Positions 682 to 59,741 of a DNA stretch of 64,000 nt are shown here, in pieces; positions within the stretch are counted from its first letter, which is position 1; every line of letters begins with the position of its first letter. The stretch comes from Clostridia bacterium. Its GTDB lineage: Bacteria > Bacillota > Clostridia > Christensenellales > DTU072. The notes under the pieces are model-generated. The model did no database searches, had not been told where the DNA came from, and saw only the letters and a list, made by a program, of their open reading frames with translations. A program made the position numbers and the translations under genes. The DNA lies in NCBI GenBank assembly GCA_045535785.1, contig JAZSMH010000064.1:5751-69750 (forward strand), read 5' to 3'.

Positions 682-702
682 TTAGAAAATTAAATATAGA
701 TA

Positions 703-975
703 ATGCGTTGATTAAGAAGAAGTAAATTCTTGTTGCAGTCTACAGAGAGGCGCTGGTTGGTGTGAAGCGTCGACGGATAAGGGTTGAATACATCTTAGGA
801 GTTGCGTACCGAAGGTATTTTTACTGTGTAGGCTACGACGGGGTCGCCCGTTACAGCGATAGAGCGTCGTTATTATGACCGCGCCCGATAAGGTTATTAC
901 AGCAATGTAATAGCGAAAAGAGGTGGTACCACGATTATTTCGTCCTCTTGGTGAATACCAAGGGGACTTTTTTAT
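703..975 (+). ncRNA. T-box riboswitch (transcription attenuator), Tyr specifier
   Basis: AGTA motif, AGAGAG bulge, GGTGTGAA apical loop, specifier loop GAA-TAC-A (TAC at 789-791), CCGTTA box, T-box AAAAGAGGTGGTACCACG (916-933) and terminator GTCCTCTTGGT...ACCAAGGGGAC followed by a T-run. Confidence 0.92.
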
Positions 976-24946: not shown

Positions 24947-26128
24947 ATGTGTTTTTTATTCGGTAGAAAAAAGCTTCTCGCTAAGCAAGAGGAGTTATTA
25001 AGAAGAACGGAAGAATTAGAAAAAGAACTTGCGTTCACGCGTGAAAGTATAGGTCAACTTATCAGTACTACGGTGGTTACTTCCAACAACACCCTTCTTG
25101 ACGGAGTCAAGAATACTTTGCAAGCAGTCACCGACAACGTAAACAATACCCTCAAGAATAACGAGGTGCGTATTGCCGAGGTTAAGTCCGACCTAAATAG
25201 AAATCTCGCGGAAATTAGAGCGGATAACGAGAAGCGCCTTACGGAAATGCGCCAAGTTGTGGAAGAAAAACTAACCTCTACCATCAACGAAAGATTGAGT
25301 CAAACTTTCGTTACCATTAACGAAAGACTTGATGCAGTTAACAAGGGCTTAGGTGAAATGCAAAGCCTAACCACGGGCGTAACCGACTTAAAGAAAATTC
25401 TCGGTAACGTAAGGACGCGTGGGACTTTCGGCGAAATAAGTCTTTCTAACCTTCTTTCGAACATTCTCACGACCGAACAATACAAAGAGCAGTACAAGTT
25501 AAAAACGCGCGCTAACGATTTACACGATAGGAAGGTGGACTTCGTTATACTTTTACCCGGCGAAAATAAAGACGAAAAAGTACTTTTACCCATCGATGCA
25601 AAATTCCCTATGGAAGACTACCAAAGACTCGTTGCCGCATCGGAAGCAGGCGATCAAATTGCTACGCAAGAATCGGTAAAAGCCCTCGAAAACGCGGTAA
25701 AACAACAAGCAAAATCAATAAAAGAAAAATACATCGTTCCCCCGCAAACGGTGGACTTTGCGATAATGTATTTACCCATAGAAGGGCTCTATGCGGAAGT
25801 TGCACGCAACGCGGGATTGCTTGAAGAATTGCGCGCAAAATACAAAGTTATACCCGCAGGCCCCACCACTATTGCCGCGCTACTTAACAGCCTACAAATC
25901 GGTTTTAAGACGCTTGCAGTGCAGAAGTCGAGCAAAGAGATTTATGAACTTCTCGTCAAATTTAAGGGCGATTTCGTAACCTTTATAGGCAATATAGAAA
26001 AGGCGCAAACTCAAGTGGGACAAATCGGCAAAACTCTCGAAGACGCAACCAAACGTACCGCTATGATGATGAAAAAAATCGAGAAAGTAGAAGGGCTTGC
26101 ACCACCCGTACCAAGTATAGAAAATTGA
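24947..26128 (+). CDS. rmuC: DNA recombination protein RmuC
   Basis: Coiled coil, 'TRGTFGE', 'LPIDAKFPMEDY' and 'FAIMYLPIEGLYAE' motifs. Confidence 0.92.
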   Translation: MCFLFGRKKLLAKQEELLRRTEELEKELAFTRESIGQLISTTVVTSNNTLLDGVKNTLQAVTDNVNNTLKNNEVRIAEVKSDLNRNLAEIRADNEKRLTEMRQVVEEKLTSTINERLSQTFVTINERLDAVNKGLGEMQSLTTGVTDLKKILGNVRTRGTFGEISLSNLLSNILTTEQYKEQYKLKTRANDLHDRKVDFVILLPGENKDEKVLLPIDAKFPMEDYQRLVAASEAGDQIATQESVKALENAVKQQAKSIKEKYIVPPQTVDFAIMYLPIEGLYAEVARNAGLLEELRAKYKVIPAGPTTIAALLNSLQIGFKTLAVQKSSKEIYELLVKFKGDFVTFIGNIEKAQTQVGQIGKTLEDATKRTAMMMKKIEKVEGLAPPVPSIEN

Positions 26129-26129
26129 T

Positions 26130-26159
26130 AAAAAAGACGTACCGTTGTACGTCTTTTTT
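26130..26159 (+). terminator. Intrinsic terminator of rmuC
   Basis: AAAAAAGACGTAC-cgtt-GTACGTCTTTTTT. Confidence 0.8.
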
Positions 26160-26279
26160 AATGATGTAGTTGCCTAAAAGTCAACAATGATGTAATTTCG
26201 CATTCGCTCATAATGATGTTTTTCACTTCGTTCAAAATGACGTATTGTCCTGTCGGACAAAATTATGGATAAAAATTAT
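26160..26279 (+). repeat. Hairpin mini-array B (ATGATGT-type linkers)
   Basis: ATGATGT at 26161, 26187 and 26213, ATGACGT at 26237 (24-26 nt period). End motif AATTATGGATAAAAATTAT at 26261-26279. Confidence 0.85.
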
Positions 26280-26332
26280 TGTAGATAATATTATTAATTA
26301 AATTAAAAAATTGATTTTTGTAAATAAATGGT

Positions 26333-26551
26333 TTAACGTTGAATATTAAGTATATCGTCTGCTGAGCAGTCAAGTACGGTGCAGAGTTTAGATAAGGTTG
26401 CGAGAGTAGGTTGTGCGCGACCTGATAGATATTGTGATATCGTGGCGCGTGACACACCGATAGCGGACGCAATTTCACTCTTTTTTAAGCCCGACTGCTC
26501 TATCTCGCGTTTGATATTTTCCGATATAATAACGTCTAAACTCTTTTCCAT
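26333..26551 (-). CDS. XRE-family HTH regulator
   Basis: 'SEIASAIGVSRATISQYLSGRAQPTLATLSKLCTVLDCSADDIL'; AAAGGA RBS. Confidence 0.88.
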   Translation of the reverse strand: MEKSLDVIISENIKREIEQSGLKKSEIASAIGVSRATISQYLSGRAQPTLATLSKLCTVLDCSADDILNIQR

Positions 26552-26563
26552 ATTTCCTTTATC

Positions 26564-26668
26564 ATAATTTTATCCGTAATTTTTGCGCAAGCAAATACAT
26601 CATTACGAGCGTATGCGAAGTAGCATCACGTTGTCATAGACAACGCATCATTAGCGCAGCGGCATCAT
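26564..26668 (-). repeat. Hairpin mini-array C (inverted partner of B)
   Basis: Plus-strand ACATCAT, GCATCAC, GCATCAT and GCATCAT (26597, 26623, 26645, 26662). Hairpins TTTGC-gcaa-GCAAA and GTTGTC-ata-GACAAC. End motif ATAATTTTATCCGTAATT. Confidence 0.85.
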
Positions 26669-26680
26669 GTAAAAAACATA

Positions 26681-26714
26681 AAAAACCACCGAATTGCTCG
26701 GTGGCTTATTTTTT
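26681..26714. terminator. Intrinsic terminator of the leftward lipoprotein gene
   Basis: A-run, CCACCGA-attgc-TCGGTGG, then a T-rich tract. Confidence 0.6.
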
Positions 26715-26800
26715 ATTGTTTTTTTAATGGATATACCATAACACGTGTTTATTTAGTAGAGCGCACTTGAATGACCAACTGCGCCCCGACCGCCGTCGGT

Positions 26801-28309
26801 TTAATGGTTGTGACCTGCGTGATCGTCTTCGCTATCGGTAGTAGCTTCACCGATAAGGGTGAGTAGATCGTCTTCACTTATGATACCTAGGATTTTGCCT
26901 TTGGTGATATCGGTATCAGCGGTGATGGTGTCAAGCGCGGGGATTACGTAGTAGTATGCGTTATCTTCCATATCGTCGTTTAGGTAATAGATTACGTTGC
27001 CGATGATATCGTAAGTTACGTAAGAAGAATTGTATACGCCCTTGAAGAAATCAATCTTGTTTTCGTCTGCGTAAGCGTAGGTAACGATACTGCCTTCGGT
27101 AGTCTTATTGAAGAGCTTGATATAGCAGAAAGTGCTGTTTGCGATATAGTTGATATAAACTTCGCTAGCGGTTTCTACAACGTCGATTACGGTGATAGAA
27201 TCTGCGCCGAAGTCGAAAGATAGATATTTGCTTTCTTCTACTGCATCGTAAGAAGCTTTTTCTACCCTGCTACCATTTTGGAATACGTCGATAGCCTTGC
27301 CGGAGAAAGCGAGCACGTAGCCGTTATCTAAGGTATAGAAAGCGGAGTAGGTGGTGGTAGAAGTTTCGTAAGAGTATCTCAATTCTTTGGTAGCATCGTA
27401 AGCAAGGTCTGCACCGAAGGTGTAAGAATAGAAACCGTCGTTAGCACCGTTTTGGGTATTGTCGTCTTTCTTATAGAATAGCGTTAGCTTGTCGCCGTCG
27501 ATAGCAACGGAAGTAACGGTAGTGGTATAAAGAATATCTCTATCGGTGTCACCGTTGTAGATGTCACTGCTTAGTACCGCCTTTAATTGACCGTTAACTA
27601 GGTTGTATACGTATACGATATAGTCGGTGCTATAGTTAGCAGCGTCTGCATAGTTGTAAGTAGTGAAGACAGCGTAGTCGCCTACGAAAGTATAAGCAAC
27701 TGCGGTGACGTCTTCTTTACTTTCAGCGGTAGACTTAGTAAGAGTGGTGATAGCTAAGGTTTCGCTATTGATAGAGTATAGGTAGTTATCGTATGCGTAA
27801 ACTAGATACTTAGAATTGTCACCTGCGTACAACTTGATATCGTTATCGTCAAGTTCTTTGATAGTTTCGGTAACGCTACCGTCAACCTTGGTACGGCAAA
27901 GAACGCCTTGGTTTGACTTGTAGTTAAGCTCGCTATCTTTGTCAACGCTAGTGGTGTTGTAGTAGATATAATCGCCTACGATATAAAGTCCACCGTAAGT
28001 GGTATCTTCGCCGAATACGTTCTTAGGTACGATAGTGGTAACCGTAGTGTAATCGGGAGTACCGTTCTTAAGGGTAACTCTACAAATAGAACCGCGTACT
28101 ACTTCGCCAAAGGTGTTGTCTGCAGTTTCGCCTGCAAAACCGTTGACAAAATATACGTAGTCGCCATAACTAACCGCCATACCGCCGTTGTCACTTACGT
28201 CACCAGCTACGGTAGGAATTGCTTTTTGTTCGGTGTTTTCTCCACAAGCAGCTAGTACACAGCAGAGGAGAATTGCACAAACGATTGTAAAAATGATTTT
28301 CTTTTTCAT
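26801..28309 (-). CDS. Lipoprotein, probable beta-propeller (DUF5050-like), His-rich C-terminus
   Basis: Lipobox 'VLAAC', 'NGGMAVSYGDYVYFVNG' and 'GDYIYY' blade-like repeats; ends DDHAGHNH. Confidence 0.7.
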   Translation of the reverse strand: MKKKIIFTIVCAILLCCVLAACGENTEQKAIPTVAGDVSDNGGMAVSYGDYVYFVNGFAGETADNTFGEVVRGSICRVTLKNGTPDYTTVTTIVPKNVFGEDTTYGGLYIVGDYIYYNTTSVDKDSELNYKSNQGVLCRTKVDGSVTETIKELDDNDIKLYAGDNSKYLVYAYDNYLYSINSETLAITTLTKSTAESKEDVTAVAYTFVGDYAVFTTYNYADAANYSTDYIVYVYNLVNGQLKAVLSSDIYNGDTDRDILYTTTVTSVAIDGDKLTLFYKKDDNTQNGANDGFYSYTFGADLAYDATKELRYSYETSTTTYSAFYTLDNGYVLAFSGKAIDVFQNGSRVEKASYDAVEESKYLSFDFGADSITVIDVVETASEVYINYIANSTFCYIKLFNKTTEGSIVTYAYADENKIDFFKGVYNSSYVTYDIIGNVIYYLNDDMEDNAYYYVIPALDTITADTDITKGKILGIISEDDLLTLIGEATTDSEDDHAGHNH

Positions 28310-39319: not shown

Positions 39320-40222
39320 ATGGACAGTTCTTTGTTAGTTTTTAAAGCAATAGACGTATTGCTAAAAAAGGCGGAAAATTCCGTAGAGTACCCTTCCGTT
39401 ACTACCGAAGAAGTTAGTTACGATAGTAGGTTCTTAAGGACGAAAGCGGATATAAAATACGTCGGTGAGAAGGGGAAATTACGCCCCGTAGTTTTTTACG
39501 TACCGGGCGGTGGTTTCGTAGCAGGCGGTAAGCAGTACCGTAGCGAAATAACGGGCTTTTTTGCAAGCAAAGGGTACGCGGTATTTTGTGCTAATTTACG
39601 CACCGCGCCCGAATTTCCCTTCCCTACGCCGTTAGAAGATTTAGTCACCGCGCTTAATTTTTTATACGATAATAGTAACGAGTACGGTTTTGATATCGAC
39701 AACGTGATTTTTGCAGGCGATAGTTCGGGTGGGTATTTTGCTTCTTACGCCGTTGCGCTTGCTACGCACCCAACGTTAAGAGAAGAACTCAATTTGCCCG
39801 AACTAAAAGTTAAACCCCGTGCGCTCATTTTCTTATCGGGAGTAGCGGACGTTGTAAAAATGGTAAAATTAAGAGATCCACTTATGATTGCACGCAACAC
39901 GGGTAGGCATTTTCTTAATTACAAACTTAAATGGGGTGCAACTAACGCAAAAGACTATCAGTTTTATAAATATCTTTCACCAGCTAATTTTGTCACCAAT
40001 AATTGGTGTCCCACCTTCCTTTCTTATTCAAAAAAAGACCTATTTTGCGGTGGACAAGGGGAAATTCTAGACGAAAAATTGACGCAATTTGCGATAGAAG
40101 AACGTAAGCACGTAGCAACGCGCCTACTTGATAATCACTGCTATATTTTGTTCAGTAAGAAGAAGAAAGCACGCGAAGCGCAAGAATTACTTGCTGAATT
40201 TTTGTTAAAATTTAGCAAGTGA
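39320..40222 (+). CDS. HSL-family esterase/lipase (alpha/beta hydrolase)
   Basis: 'PGGGF' oxyanion motif, 'APEFPFP' and GDSSGG. Confidence 0.85.
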   Translation: MDSSLLVFKAIDVLLKKAENSVEYPSVTTEEVSYDSRFLRTKADIKYVGEKGKLRPVVFYVPGGGFVAGGKQYRSEITGFFASKGYAVFCANLRTAPEFPFPTPLEDLVTALNFLYDNSNEYGFDIDNVIFAGDSSGGYFASYAVALATHPTLREELNLPELKVKPRALIFLSGVADVVKMVKLRDPLMIARNTGRHFLNYKLKWGATNAKDYQFYKYLSPANFVTNNWCPTFLSYSKKDLFCGGQGEILDEKLTQFAIEERKHVATRLLDNHCYILFSKKKKAREAQELLAEFLLKFSK

Positions 40223-40315
40223 AATGATGTCGCTACGCTGATGATGATACTCAGCATTCGCTTGTAATGATGCCACTGCGTTAATGATGCCGCTACGCTA
40301 ATTGTGGATAAAAAT
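40219..40315 (+). repeat. Hairpin mini-array E (ATGATGY-type linkers)
   Basis: ATGATG(T/A/C/C) at 40224, 40241, 40267 and 40284. Spacers CGCTACGCT (twice) and CTCAGCATTCGCTTGT. End motif AATTGTGGATAAAAAT. Confidence 0.8.
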
Positions 40316-59636: not shown

Positions 59637-59724
59637 ATCCATAACTTTGCCTAAAGGCAAAATTTCACTCACGAAGTGAATTTCACCACAAAGTGATTTC
59701 ACCTGCCGTTACGGCAGATTTCAC
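59635..59724 (-). repeat. Hairpin mini-array D (GTGAAAT-type linkers)
   Basis: Plus-strand ATTTCAC at 59662, 59680, 59696 and 59718 between hairpins TTTGCC-taaa-GGCAAA, TCAC-gaa-GTGA, CAC-aaa-GTG and CTGCCG-tta-CGGCAG. End motif TTATCCATAAC. Confidence 0.87.
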
Positions 59725-59741
59725 TGATAACTATACGGCGA

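Follow-up and report, generated by a model that had tools for sequence, protein, structure and literature searches.

Two Gut-1-type hairpin repeat arrays around an apparently separately acquired XRE gene in a Clostridia genome

Short repeats that fill intergenic DNA are known from several groups of bacteria. Repetitive extragenic palindromic (REP) sequences, bacterial interspersed mosaic elements (BIMEs) and REP doublets forming hairpins (REPINs) occur together with RAYT transposases in Enterobacteria and Pseudomonas. BOX elements of Streptococcus pneumoniae have the order boxA-boxB(n)-boxC, and STAR elements of Staphylococcus aureus consist of short direct repeats with variable spacers; neither is known to have a transposase of its own, and the copy number of both varies between strains. 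Here, we analyzed a stretch of ~510 bp (positions 26160 to 26668) within a window of 64,000 nt from contig JAZSMH010000064.1 of a Clostridia bacterium, in which two arrays of short hairpins, B and C, face each other across a small gene of the XRE (Cro/C1-type) family. An earlier note on this DNA had proposed a REPIN-like, non-autonomous mobile unit with the gene as its cargo. We hold with moderate confidence that the stretch consists of two copies of a Gut-1-type repeat around a separately acquired XRE gene and is not one element.

Gut-1 (RF01706), known from gut metagenomes, was described as an RNA motif. In the supplement of Weinberg et al. (2010; PMC2864571), the seed alignment shows a hairpin followed by GUGAAAU, three times over, and the table of the same paper lists the motif as "RNA? 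Y," not cis-regulatory, found in the human gut only and with 43 representatives (PMC2864571). The portions of literature turned up by a full-text search give no function for it. Arrays B and C resemble Gut-1 in being strings of variable small hairpins, with a constant heptamer word behind each. The word differs, being GUGAAAU in Gut-1 and ATGATGT(A) in B and C, and so does the number of units, which is three in Gut-1 and variable here; in addition, Rfam files Gut-1 as a small RNA (sRNA) gene, whereas the copies described below behave like dispersed repeats.

The layout described in the earlier note proved accurate (Table 1). Arrays B (+) and C (−), with four words each, do face each other by sequence reading; their inner ends are near-perfect inverted repeats (94% complementary over 16 nt), each after a perfect hairpin; the interior holds an AT-rich stretch and a single 72-aa XRE gene, as seen from the open reading frame (ORF) list and the HTH_3 match (56.2 bits against a cut-off of 23, residues 13-66); and both bordering terminators are present. 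Array B has its words at 26160-26168, 26186-26194, 26212-26219 and 26236-26244. The first two are AATGATGTA, with the spacer gttgcctaaaagtcaac between them; atttcgcattcgctcat then leads to the third word, AATGATGT, and ttttcacttcgttcaa to the fourth, AATGACGTA, after which a perfect hairpin (TTGTCC-tgtc-GGACAA, 26245-26260) directly precedes the end motif AATTATGGATAAAA. The spacers of B comprise one imperfect hairpin, two non-hairpin modules and one perfect hairpin. The words of array C, in plus-strand coordinates, lie at 26661-26668, 26645-26652, 26622-26629 and 26596-26604, and its perfect hairpin (TTTGC-ttgc-GCAAA) adjoins the end motif AATTACGGATAAAA, so that both arrays end in a perfect hairpin and then AATTAYGGATAAAA. 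Array B starts at the T-run of the rmuC terminator, array C ~15 nt behind the T-run of the lipoprotein-gene terminator, and the ATG of the XRE gene lies 16 nt past the end motif of C. A 36-nt stretch of B and C that includes the spacer shared by both is 83% complementary. Within the window, AATGATGT occurs five times (1.85 expected), four of them at the B/C locus, and the end motif three times (0.36 expected).

Table 1. Features of the B/C locus and related arrays in the window.
Feature	Position	Strand	Description
rmuC	24947..26128	+	393-aa ORF; Pfam RmuC, 224.1 bits; neighbour upstream of array B
rmuC terminator	26129..26160	two-way	14-bp perfect hairpin with an A-run on one side and a T-run on the other; 100% complementary
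Array B	26160..26279	+	Four ATGATG-type words and spacers, then end motif AATTATGGATAAAA at 26261-26274
AT-rich spacer	26280..26332	no strand	53 bases between array B and the XRE ORF
XRE / Cro-C1-type helix-turn-helix gene	26333..26551	−	72 aa; Pfam HTH_3
Array C	26568..26668	−	Four ATGATG-type words, then end motif AATTACGGATAAAA at 26568-26581 after a perfect hairpin at 26582-26595
Terminator of the convergent putative lipoprotein gene	26683..26707		Sequence reading and terminator scan
Putative lipoprotein gene, convergent	26801-28309	−	Signal peptide and lipobox-like LAAC read from the translation; no Pfam family
Third ATGATG-word array	40222..40313	+	Ends in AATTGTGGATAAAA
GTGAAAT-word array	59657..59726	−	Rfam Gut-1, 61.3 bits (cut-off 50)

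Further analysis of the genome to which the window belongs (G000; 2.16 Mb in 71 contigs, 39.5% G+C, 96.4% complete) revealed that B and C are ordinary members of a family of 71 arrays. The two-word pattern AATGATGTA-N10-20-AATGATGTA had 48 matches in this genome and none in a reversed control. Screening of k-mers for words that recur at 12-32 nt brought out ATGATGT and GTGAAGT, reading of the arrays added GTGAAAT, GCGATAT, GTGATAT and TCGATAT, and all of these word classes fit the skeleton R-Y-G-A-W-R-T. Arrays of at least three words numbered 79; without the 8 that lie within ORFs of ≥100 aa, 71 intergenic ones remained. The words are direct repeats at an irregular spacing of 17-40 nt, and a perfect stem of ≥4 bp was present in 66% of the 219 inter-word spacers versus 8.5% of shuffled spacers. 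The end motif follows 40 of the 71 arrays, and its version tracks the word class (AATT..GGATAAAA with ATGATG words, AGTT..GGATA with GTGAAG or GTGAAA words); a perfect 4-6-bp hairpin, with seven different arm sequences and variable loops, precedes the strict end motif in 19/19 ATGATG arrays. The shared spacer of B and C (TTCGC...GCTCRT) sits between ATGATG words in 10 arrays, and the word-bounded spacer modules form a small common set whose orders and numbers differ among arrays. The inner-end motif, the hairpin and the shared spacer, which the earlier note had read as ties between B and C, are thus real and at the same time family-wide, so they give no sign that the two arrays belong together.

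A composite of GCGATAT and GTGAAGT words, 130-280 nt long, was found 90-100% identical at no fewer than 10 places (C29:135167-135543, C13:26650-26811, C65:75916-76077, C2:5155-5286, C1:19-150, C58:31225-31347, C34:1-156, C38:1202-1474, C57:16499-16643 and C64:16095-16213) and stands at many contig ends, which suggests that this sub-family was amplified recently. The complement of the end motif resembles TTATCCACA, and a DnaA box was considered for it and dropped, as the variable positions hit the CACA part of the box.

We then compared the family with the Rfam model of Gut-1. The model gave no match at E ≤ 1 in 25900-26900, and B and C are absent from the 45 places that it matched genome-wide at this threshold; with all of Rfam at a permissive threshold, the B/C locus returned only sub-threshold, terminator-like sRNA matches. 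Thirteen of the 45 places exceed the 50-bit cut-off, all of them GTGAAAT arrays, while GTGAAGT arrays score ~47 bits and a few ATGATG arrays 18-30 bits. In place of GUGAAAU, B and C carry ATGATGT(A)/ATGACGT, with clean hairpins in only two of the four spacers per array. Like the ATGATG arrays, the Gut-1 copies of G000 lie behind genes, pair convergently and carry the A-R-TT-NN-GGATA end motif. Because architecture, end motif, position and pairing are common to true Gut-1 copies and these arrays, we file B and C as an ATGATG word-class sister type of Gut-1 that falls below membership in the Rfam model.

Gut-1-like matches (E ≤ 0.001) were present in 11 of 28 genomes of the genus, with 38 in G000, 21 in G012 and at most 5 in each of the others. 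The exact ATGATGTA pattern was found in none of the 24 same-genus and none of the 16 same-order genomes searched. A scan for two ATGATGTA words, with one genome per species, returned at least 119 stretches; of the 80 that were read, two (L153 and L172) show the word-hairpin grammar and the others are coding or simple repeats. These two come from a goat-rectum Clostridia metagenome-assembled genome (MAG) and an Eubacteriales MAG, and their arrays start at T-runs or stop codons. Among viral contigs, 39 stretches were all simple tandem or coding repeats, with no word-hairpin array. The family is patchy, bursty, assembly-breaking and without conserved position, i.e., it behaves as a dispersed repeat and not as a conserved RNA gene. 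Gut-1 is one word-class of a larger dispersed, modular family of intergenic repeats in gut Christensenellales-like Clostridia. This family is marked by a defined end motif and a strict facing-pair rule and tends to abut small XRE genes; the ATGATG word-class is new here. Gut-1 has been an orphan motif since 2010, and recasting an "sRNA gene" as a repeat family affects the annotation of gut metagenomes and explains broken assemblies. Through the family and the tie of its arrays to XRE genes, the orphan motif becomes testable; for the cassette claim, the value of these data is mostly negative.

Next, we analyzed where the arrays lie relative to genes. The preceding gene is co-oriented for 44 of the 71 arrays and opposite for 21, and for 3 there is no gene before the contig end; three further arrays (one co-oriented, two opposite) were counted apart because another array lies between. 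Among the 44 co-oriented arrays, 29 start ≤54 nt from the called stop, and 18 of all 71 start directly at a T-run. The next downstream gene is convergent for 43 arrays, co-oriented for 20 and missing for 8. Neighbouring arrays within 1.5 kb form nine convergent, no divergent and five tandem pairs. In seven of the nine convergent pairs, the last words are 28-65 nt apart, in one pair 198 nt and in B/C 353 nt, B/C being the only pair that encloses a gene. The end motifs of convergent pairs often abut (e.g., GGATAAAATATCC), and the two arms carry different words in four of the nine. The facing-pair layout is partly intrinsic to the repeat family, and the B/C locus itself is probably ordinary.

BOX and STAR resemble these arrays in being modular, intergenic and variable in how many internal units they contain; their sequences are unrelated, and the units here are much smaller (~17-37 nt). 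To our knowledge, a defined end motif with strict convergent pairing is undescribed for BOX or STAR. Integron attC cassettes likewise have one small gene between structured, imperfectly palindromic sites and a strain-variable content, but the sites here are arrays in place of single attC hairpins, and pairs without a cassette are the norm (seven of the eight others); no integrase or attI was noticed nearby, although no search aimed at either was made.

We found that the XRE gene has its nearest relatives elsewhere. Homologues at 54 loci in other species (57-88% aa identity, one at 37%) come mostly from ruminant, rabbit and chicken gut MAGs labelled Christensenellaceae or Clostridia. Within the genus, identity to the best match is 63%, and no match at E ≤ 1e-10 was obtained in 16 of 27 relatives. 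In five genomes with 86-88% identical XRE homologues that were searched for it, RmuC is absent from four and 39% identical in one; the RmuC proteins of congeners are 51-65% identical. As the gene resembles genes of distant genomes more than those found within its genus, its acquisition by horizontal transfer is suggested by these comparisons, and the many synonymous sites at which its DNA differs from the homologues imply that the transfer would not be recent. None of the 54 homologue loci has rmuC or the lipoprotein gene within 2.5 kb, and just one has an array of three or more words within 500 nt, which answers largely in the negative the check that the earlier note had put forward, namely a search for the same flanks around XRE homologues elsewhere. 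A TTAGGCAnTGCCTAA-like palindrome lies ≤90 nt upstream in 45 of the 54 loci, the operator typically consisting of two palindromes around TTGTCA with TAATATAAT just ahead of the ATG. The window gene is without such an operator of its own, array C standing where the homologues carry it, and no TTAGGCAnTGCCTAA-like site was found upstream of XRE genes in G000. Many of the homologues are paired divergently with a gene whose product starts MK(I/T)CC(I/V)IGHRN (by-eye translation), seen upstream at L335, L336, L339-L342, L344, L345, L347, L348, L350, L356 and L358; this partner is not beside the window copy.

The site was also compared among relatives and strains. Of the rmuC loci of 23 congeners, only that of G013 (78% complete) keeps the convergent lipoprotein homologue, and its junction is a gap of ~170 nt with a single two-way terminator, no XRE gene and no array. 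In G009, an unrelated 81-aa Cro/C1-type gene directly follows rmuC (L093:1198-1443 (−)), a second small XRE gene at an rmuC 3′ flank. Among JGI metagenome contigs searched with RmuC, the best match was 49% identical and no contig came from the same species. Part of the stretch is present in 20 public runs from 11 studies, and we compared the contigs of three DNA runs, from as many studies, and of one RNA run. The XRE gene and both arrays occur in 3/3 DNA runs, with unchanged unit numbers and no indel listed in the covered parts of the arrays. In run X1, a single contig of 26 kb matches up to 26292 and again from 26343, and 1389 other letters take the place of 26293-26342; in X6, the contig reaches 26343 from a different sequence that ends in a terminator-like hairpin; and X2 matches the window through 26152-26553. 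The segment 26123-26153, with the rmuC stop and the first terminator arm, is replaced by 94 letters in X1 and by 186 in X2. Contigs of the RNA run (X20) cover only 25835-26098, inside rmuC. Compared with a congener, the gap thus contains an insertion, the content of which is variable. The junction comparison that the earlier note had called for thus yielded a congener without XRE gene or arrays and an interior that varies, but no empty site in the three DNA runs.

Nothing shows that arrays and gene are mobile together as a unit. When 26100-26740 was compared with the genome by BLAST, no second copy of the interior was found (query positions 190-465 matched nothing else), and other loci matched over array parts only (73-97% over 29-135 nt). 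No RAYT/Y1 transposase (PF01797) was found in G000 at E ≤ 0.01, a search that gave matches in 6 of 14 control genomes, and no direct target duplication flanks the outer ends of the unit. The outer flanks, ending in GTCTTTTTT before an A on the left and beginning with GTAAAAAAC on the right, are mutually inverted terminator tails. A MITE (miniature inverted-repeat transposable element) or composite transposon would have its best inverted repeats at the outer ends and several whole-unit copies, whereas here the best inverted repeats are at the inner ends and the unit is known from a single locus. The comparison with REPINs fares no better, as the arms are complementary over 36 nt and 16 nt only and both the doublet and its interior are single-copy. 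The arrays are like REP, BIME and REPIN elements in being tagged short extragenic palindromes, arrayed behind genes in many copies and lineage-specific; they differ in the lack of PF01797 from G000, in hairpins that are co-oriented and variable in sequence, with the linker as the constant part, and in paired arms that often bear different words, with no long hairpin possible. Of the mobile insertion postulated in the earlier note, the insertion relative to a congener, the variable interior and the probable transfer of the XRE gene hold, whereas movement as one unit finds no support; against the REPIN-like, non-autonomous element with cargo speak the single-copy interior, the missing RAYT and target duplication, and the presence of an array at only 1 of 54 homologue loci.

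These observations are consistent with the following account. The repeat, the commonest one between genes in this genome, consists of a constant 7-9-nt word (here ATGATGTA) alternating with variable small hairpins and ends in a perfect hairpin and A-R-T-T-N-N-GGATAAAA. Most arrays follow a co-oriented gene, beginning past its 3′ end or its terminator and directed away from it; B and C, behind the terminators of two converging genes, both point inward. They may be selfish or near-neutral repeats at the DNA level, comparable to REP/BIME or BOX. Units were presumably gained and lost by slippage or unequal exchange at identical words, since individual arrays contain the same modules in varying order, and whole arrays may spread by recombination or some other factor. 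The XRE gene would have reached the gap by horizontal transfer, separately from the arrays, and array C may have replaced its promoter region, the ancestral operator being absent. Its transcription would then depend on read-through from the lipoprotein gene or on the weak −10-like TAAAAT/TATGAT at the end of array C.

Several points weigh against this account. We identified no mechanism by which the arrays spread, and the placement counts rest on crude greedy ORF calls. Facing pairs also occur between genes that are not convergent (C37, C48 and C50), so arrays growing from two terminators fail to explain the mirror rule, and B and C may to some degree form a unit. The strain evidence comes from contigs only, at ≥88% likeness, a level at which rare variants are invisible, and in two of the three DNA runs the interior varies between strains exactly at the inner end of array B. 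HTH_3 matches lie near arrays more often than genes in general (within 300 nt, 7 of 31 versus 105 of 1593 crude genes; Fisher p 0.004, odds ratio 4.1), an enrichment that may come in part from shared residence in variable regions. Among 64 word-preceded end motifs, a plausible ORF follows 4 within ~21 nt, and 3 of these ORFs are of the Cro/C1 type; XRE genes start 8-19 nt past an end motif at three loci, each with another word class. This proximity hints at a functional link that a selfish repeat does not predict.

An alternative that we consider unlikely is that the arrays act as structured RNA, i.e., as multi-hairpin trailers or sRNAs in which the single-stranded words bind a protein or protect 3′ ends. 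The rating of Gut-1 as "RNA? Y" by Weinberg et al. (2010; PMC2864571) agrees with this, as do stems that covary while their loops vary, an orientation shared with the upstream gene in 44 of 65 arrays, and array starts at the stop codon or terminator of that gene. However, most arrays begin after a terminator, which leaves a promoter no space, and there are hardly any wobble pairs: of 95 stems with ≥5 pairs, 89 are perfect, and the rest include one G:T mismatch versus three A:C, too few for a strand test. Folding of B and C as whole strands in both orientations was no better than that of shuffles (z of +0.59, −1.38, −0.36 and −1.31), and the patchy occurrence in the genus, the lineage-specific bursts and the near-identical copies at contig ends are not those of a conserved RNA gene. 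The near-absent wobble pairs and the starts after terminators lean toward DNA over RNA, neither being decisive.

Rather improbable, in our assessment, is a role of the arrays as regulatory DNA for Cro/C1-type repressors, in which the words serve as operator half-sites and the end motif as an outward promoter that is −10-like. The XRE gene would then have array C as its present promoter and operator, and array B, as a second module, would fire antisense into the 3′ end of the gene. The enrichment of HTH_3 genes near arrays (p 0.004) and the three XRE genes 8-19 nt past end motifs of different word classes speak for it. Two of these loci lie outside the window: a 72-aa Cro/C1-type gene (C2:3738-3956) starts 12 nt past the end motif of a GTGAAAT/Gut-1 array (locus C2:3661-3956, L444), and an 81-aa one (C4:7845-8087 (−)) starts 8 nt past that of a GTGATAT array (locus C4:7845-8244, L445). 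Homologues of the C2-type gene in 14 other species and two congeners (L446-L459, L462 and L463) have a conserved upstream region with the order ACATCA-N3-5-TGATGTA, TGTCAAG, TACATCA, TTTGTGGTATAAT, 7-8 nt and ATG. The inverted half-site pair is present in 13 of the 14 other-species loci (one is cut to 42 nt) and in both congeners, and its TGATGTA half equals the word (ATGATGTA) that arrays B and C carry. Of 15 C2-type proteins, 14 have the recognition helix MTQQQYSRFENGVFQLNYEQI without change, the G000 copy included; the G007 copy, which also contains a stop codon, has I for the first T. The end motif of the C2 array aligns with the conserved −10 region of these homologues. By eye, a perfect TTGACA-17-TATAAT with the palindrome in its spacer was seen on the other strand of this upstream region, and on sequence grounds the region would be a divergent promoter pair under one repressor. 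A promoter-like TGGATA-17-TATTAT at 26266-26294 (+) in the window also fits.

Against such a regulatory role stands the distribution of both partners. We found no co-occurrence of C2-type XRE genes and arrays across genomes: five genomes with the C2-type gene hold 0-1 three-word matches, whereas G045, with ATGATG arrays, has no C2-type match at E ≤ 1e-6, G044 has only a 34% match, and G012, with its 21 Gut-1-like matches, has only 45% paralogues. Close inverted word pairs are lacking at XRE genes in G000 (three matches for the six word classes, none at an XRE gene), and the single ACATCA...TGATGT match (C26:190614) has no XRE gene beside it and was judged coding by eye, so that intergenic DNA holds no such pair. 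Direct repeats at irregular distances are unusual for dimeric HTH proteins, the covarying hairpins are left without an explanation, the commonest end type has no usable −35 upstream by our own reading of the alignment, and a promoter scan gave one match versus a mean of 3.0 in shuffles. The array hairpins themselves were ruled out as operators of other XRE genes in G000: of 24 HTH_3 genes, 20 share no stem with array hairpins, 3 do because their upstream region is an array, and that at C35:43472 shares a single 7-nt arm. It is very unlikely, as we see it, that Gut-1-type arrays at large are not small RNAs but DNA modules read by Cro/C1-type repressors and have overwritten, in this genome, the native operators of at least three XRE genes, that of the window included; if true, these XRE genes and dozens of intergenic sites would be wired to one word-reading repressor.

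Distinctly improbable, finally, is that B and C form the two ends of a single non-autonomous, REPIN/MITE-like unit that landed between the terminators with the XRE gene as cargo, since the convergent pairing rule (nine versus no divergent pairs), the same junction with one common terminator and no XRE gene or arrays in G013, the strain-variable cargo side (1389 letters for 26293-26342 in X1, a different sequence before 26343 in X6) and the nearest XRE relatives outside the genus are outweighed by a single-copy interior, no RAYT/Y1 transposase found in the genome, no target duplication (B is bordered on its outer side by a T-run and C by an A-run), arms that are 83% complementary over just 36 nt and fold no better than shuffles on either strand, gene-free centres of 28-65 nt in seven of the eight other pairs, an array at 1 of 54 homologue loci, and arms with different words in four of nine pairs, which precludes REPIN-like pairing.

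Other elements were observed near arrays or elsewhere in the genome. A terminator-like intergenic element, TTTTTGGCGGAAAGGTTTGGAAAAC...GGGGGTTTTCCA, recurs (e.g., C1:12330-12400, C1:32300-32390 and C29:82990-83030), and a GC-rich CCACAGCGGCTCGCTG unit often borders arrays (e.g., C48:13980-14000 and C65:58841-58900). Four 23S_rRNA_IVP (four-helix-bundle) genes are present, at C20:14710-15024 (−), C4:12437-12742 (−), C29:98849-99136 (−) and C46:11605-11919 (+), and those on C20 and C4 adjoin word-hairpin arrays or Gut-1-like matches. In the window, the third ATGATG-word array starts at the stop codon of an upstream esterase-like gene, and ~30 nt past it a TTGACA-17-TATAAT match lies ahead of an ispE-like gene. 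A T-box leader occupies window positions 699-950 (126.9 bits).

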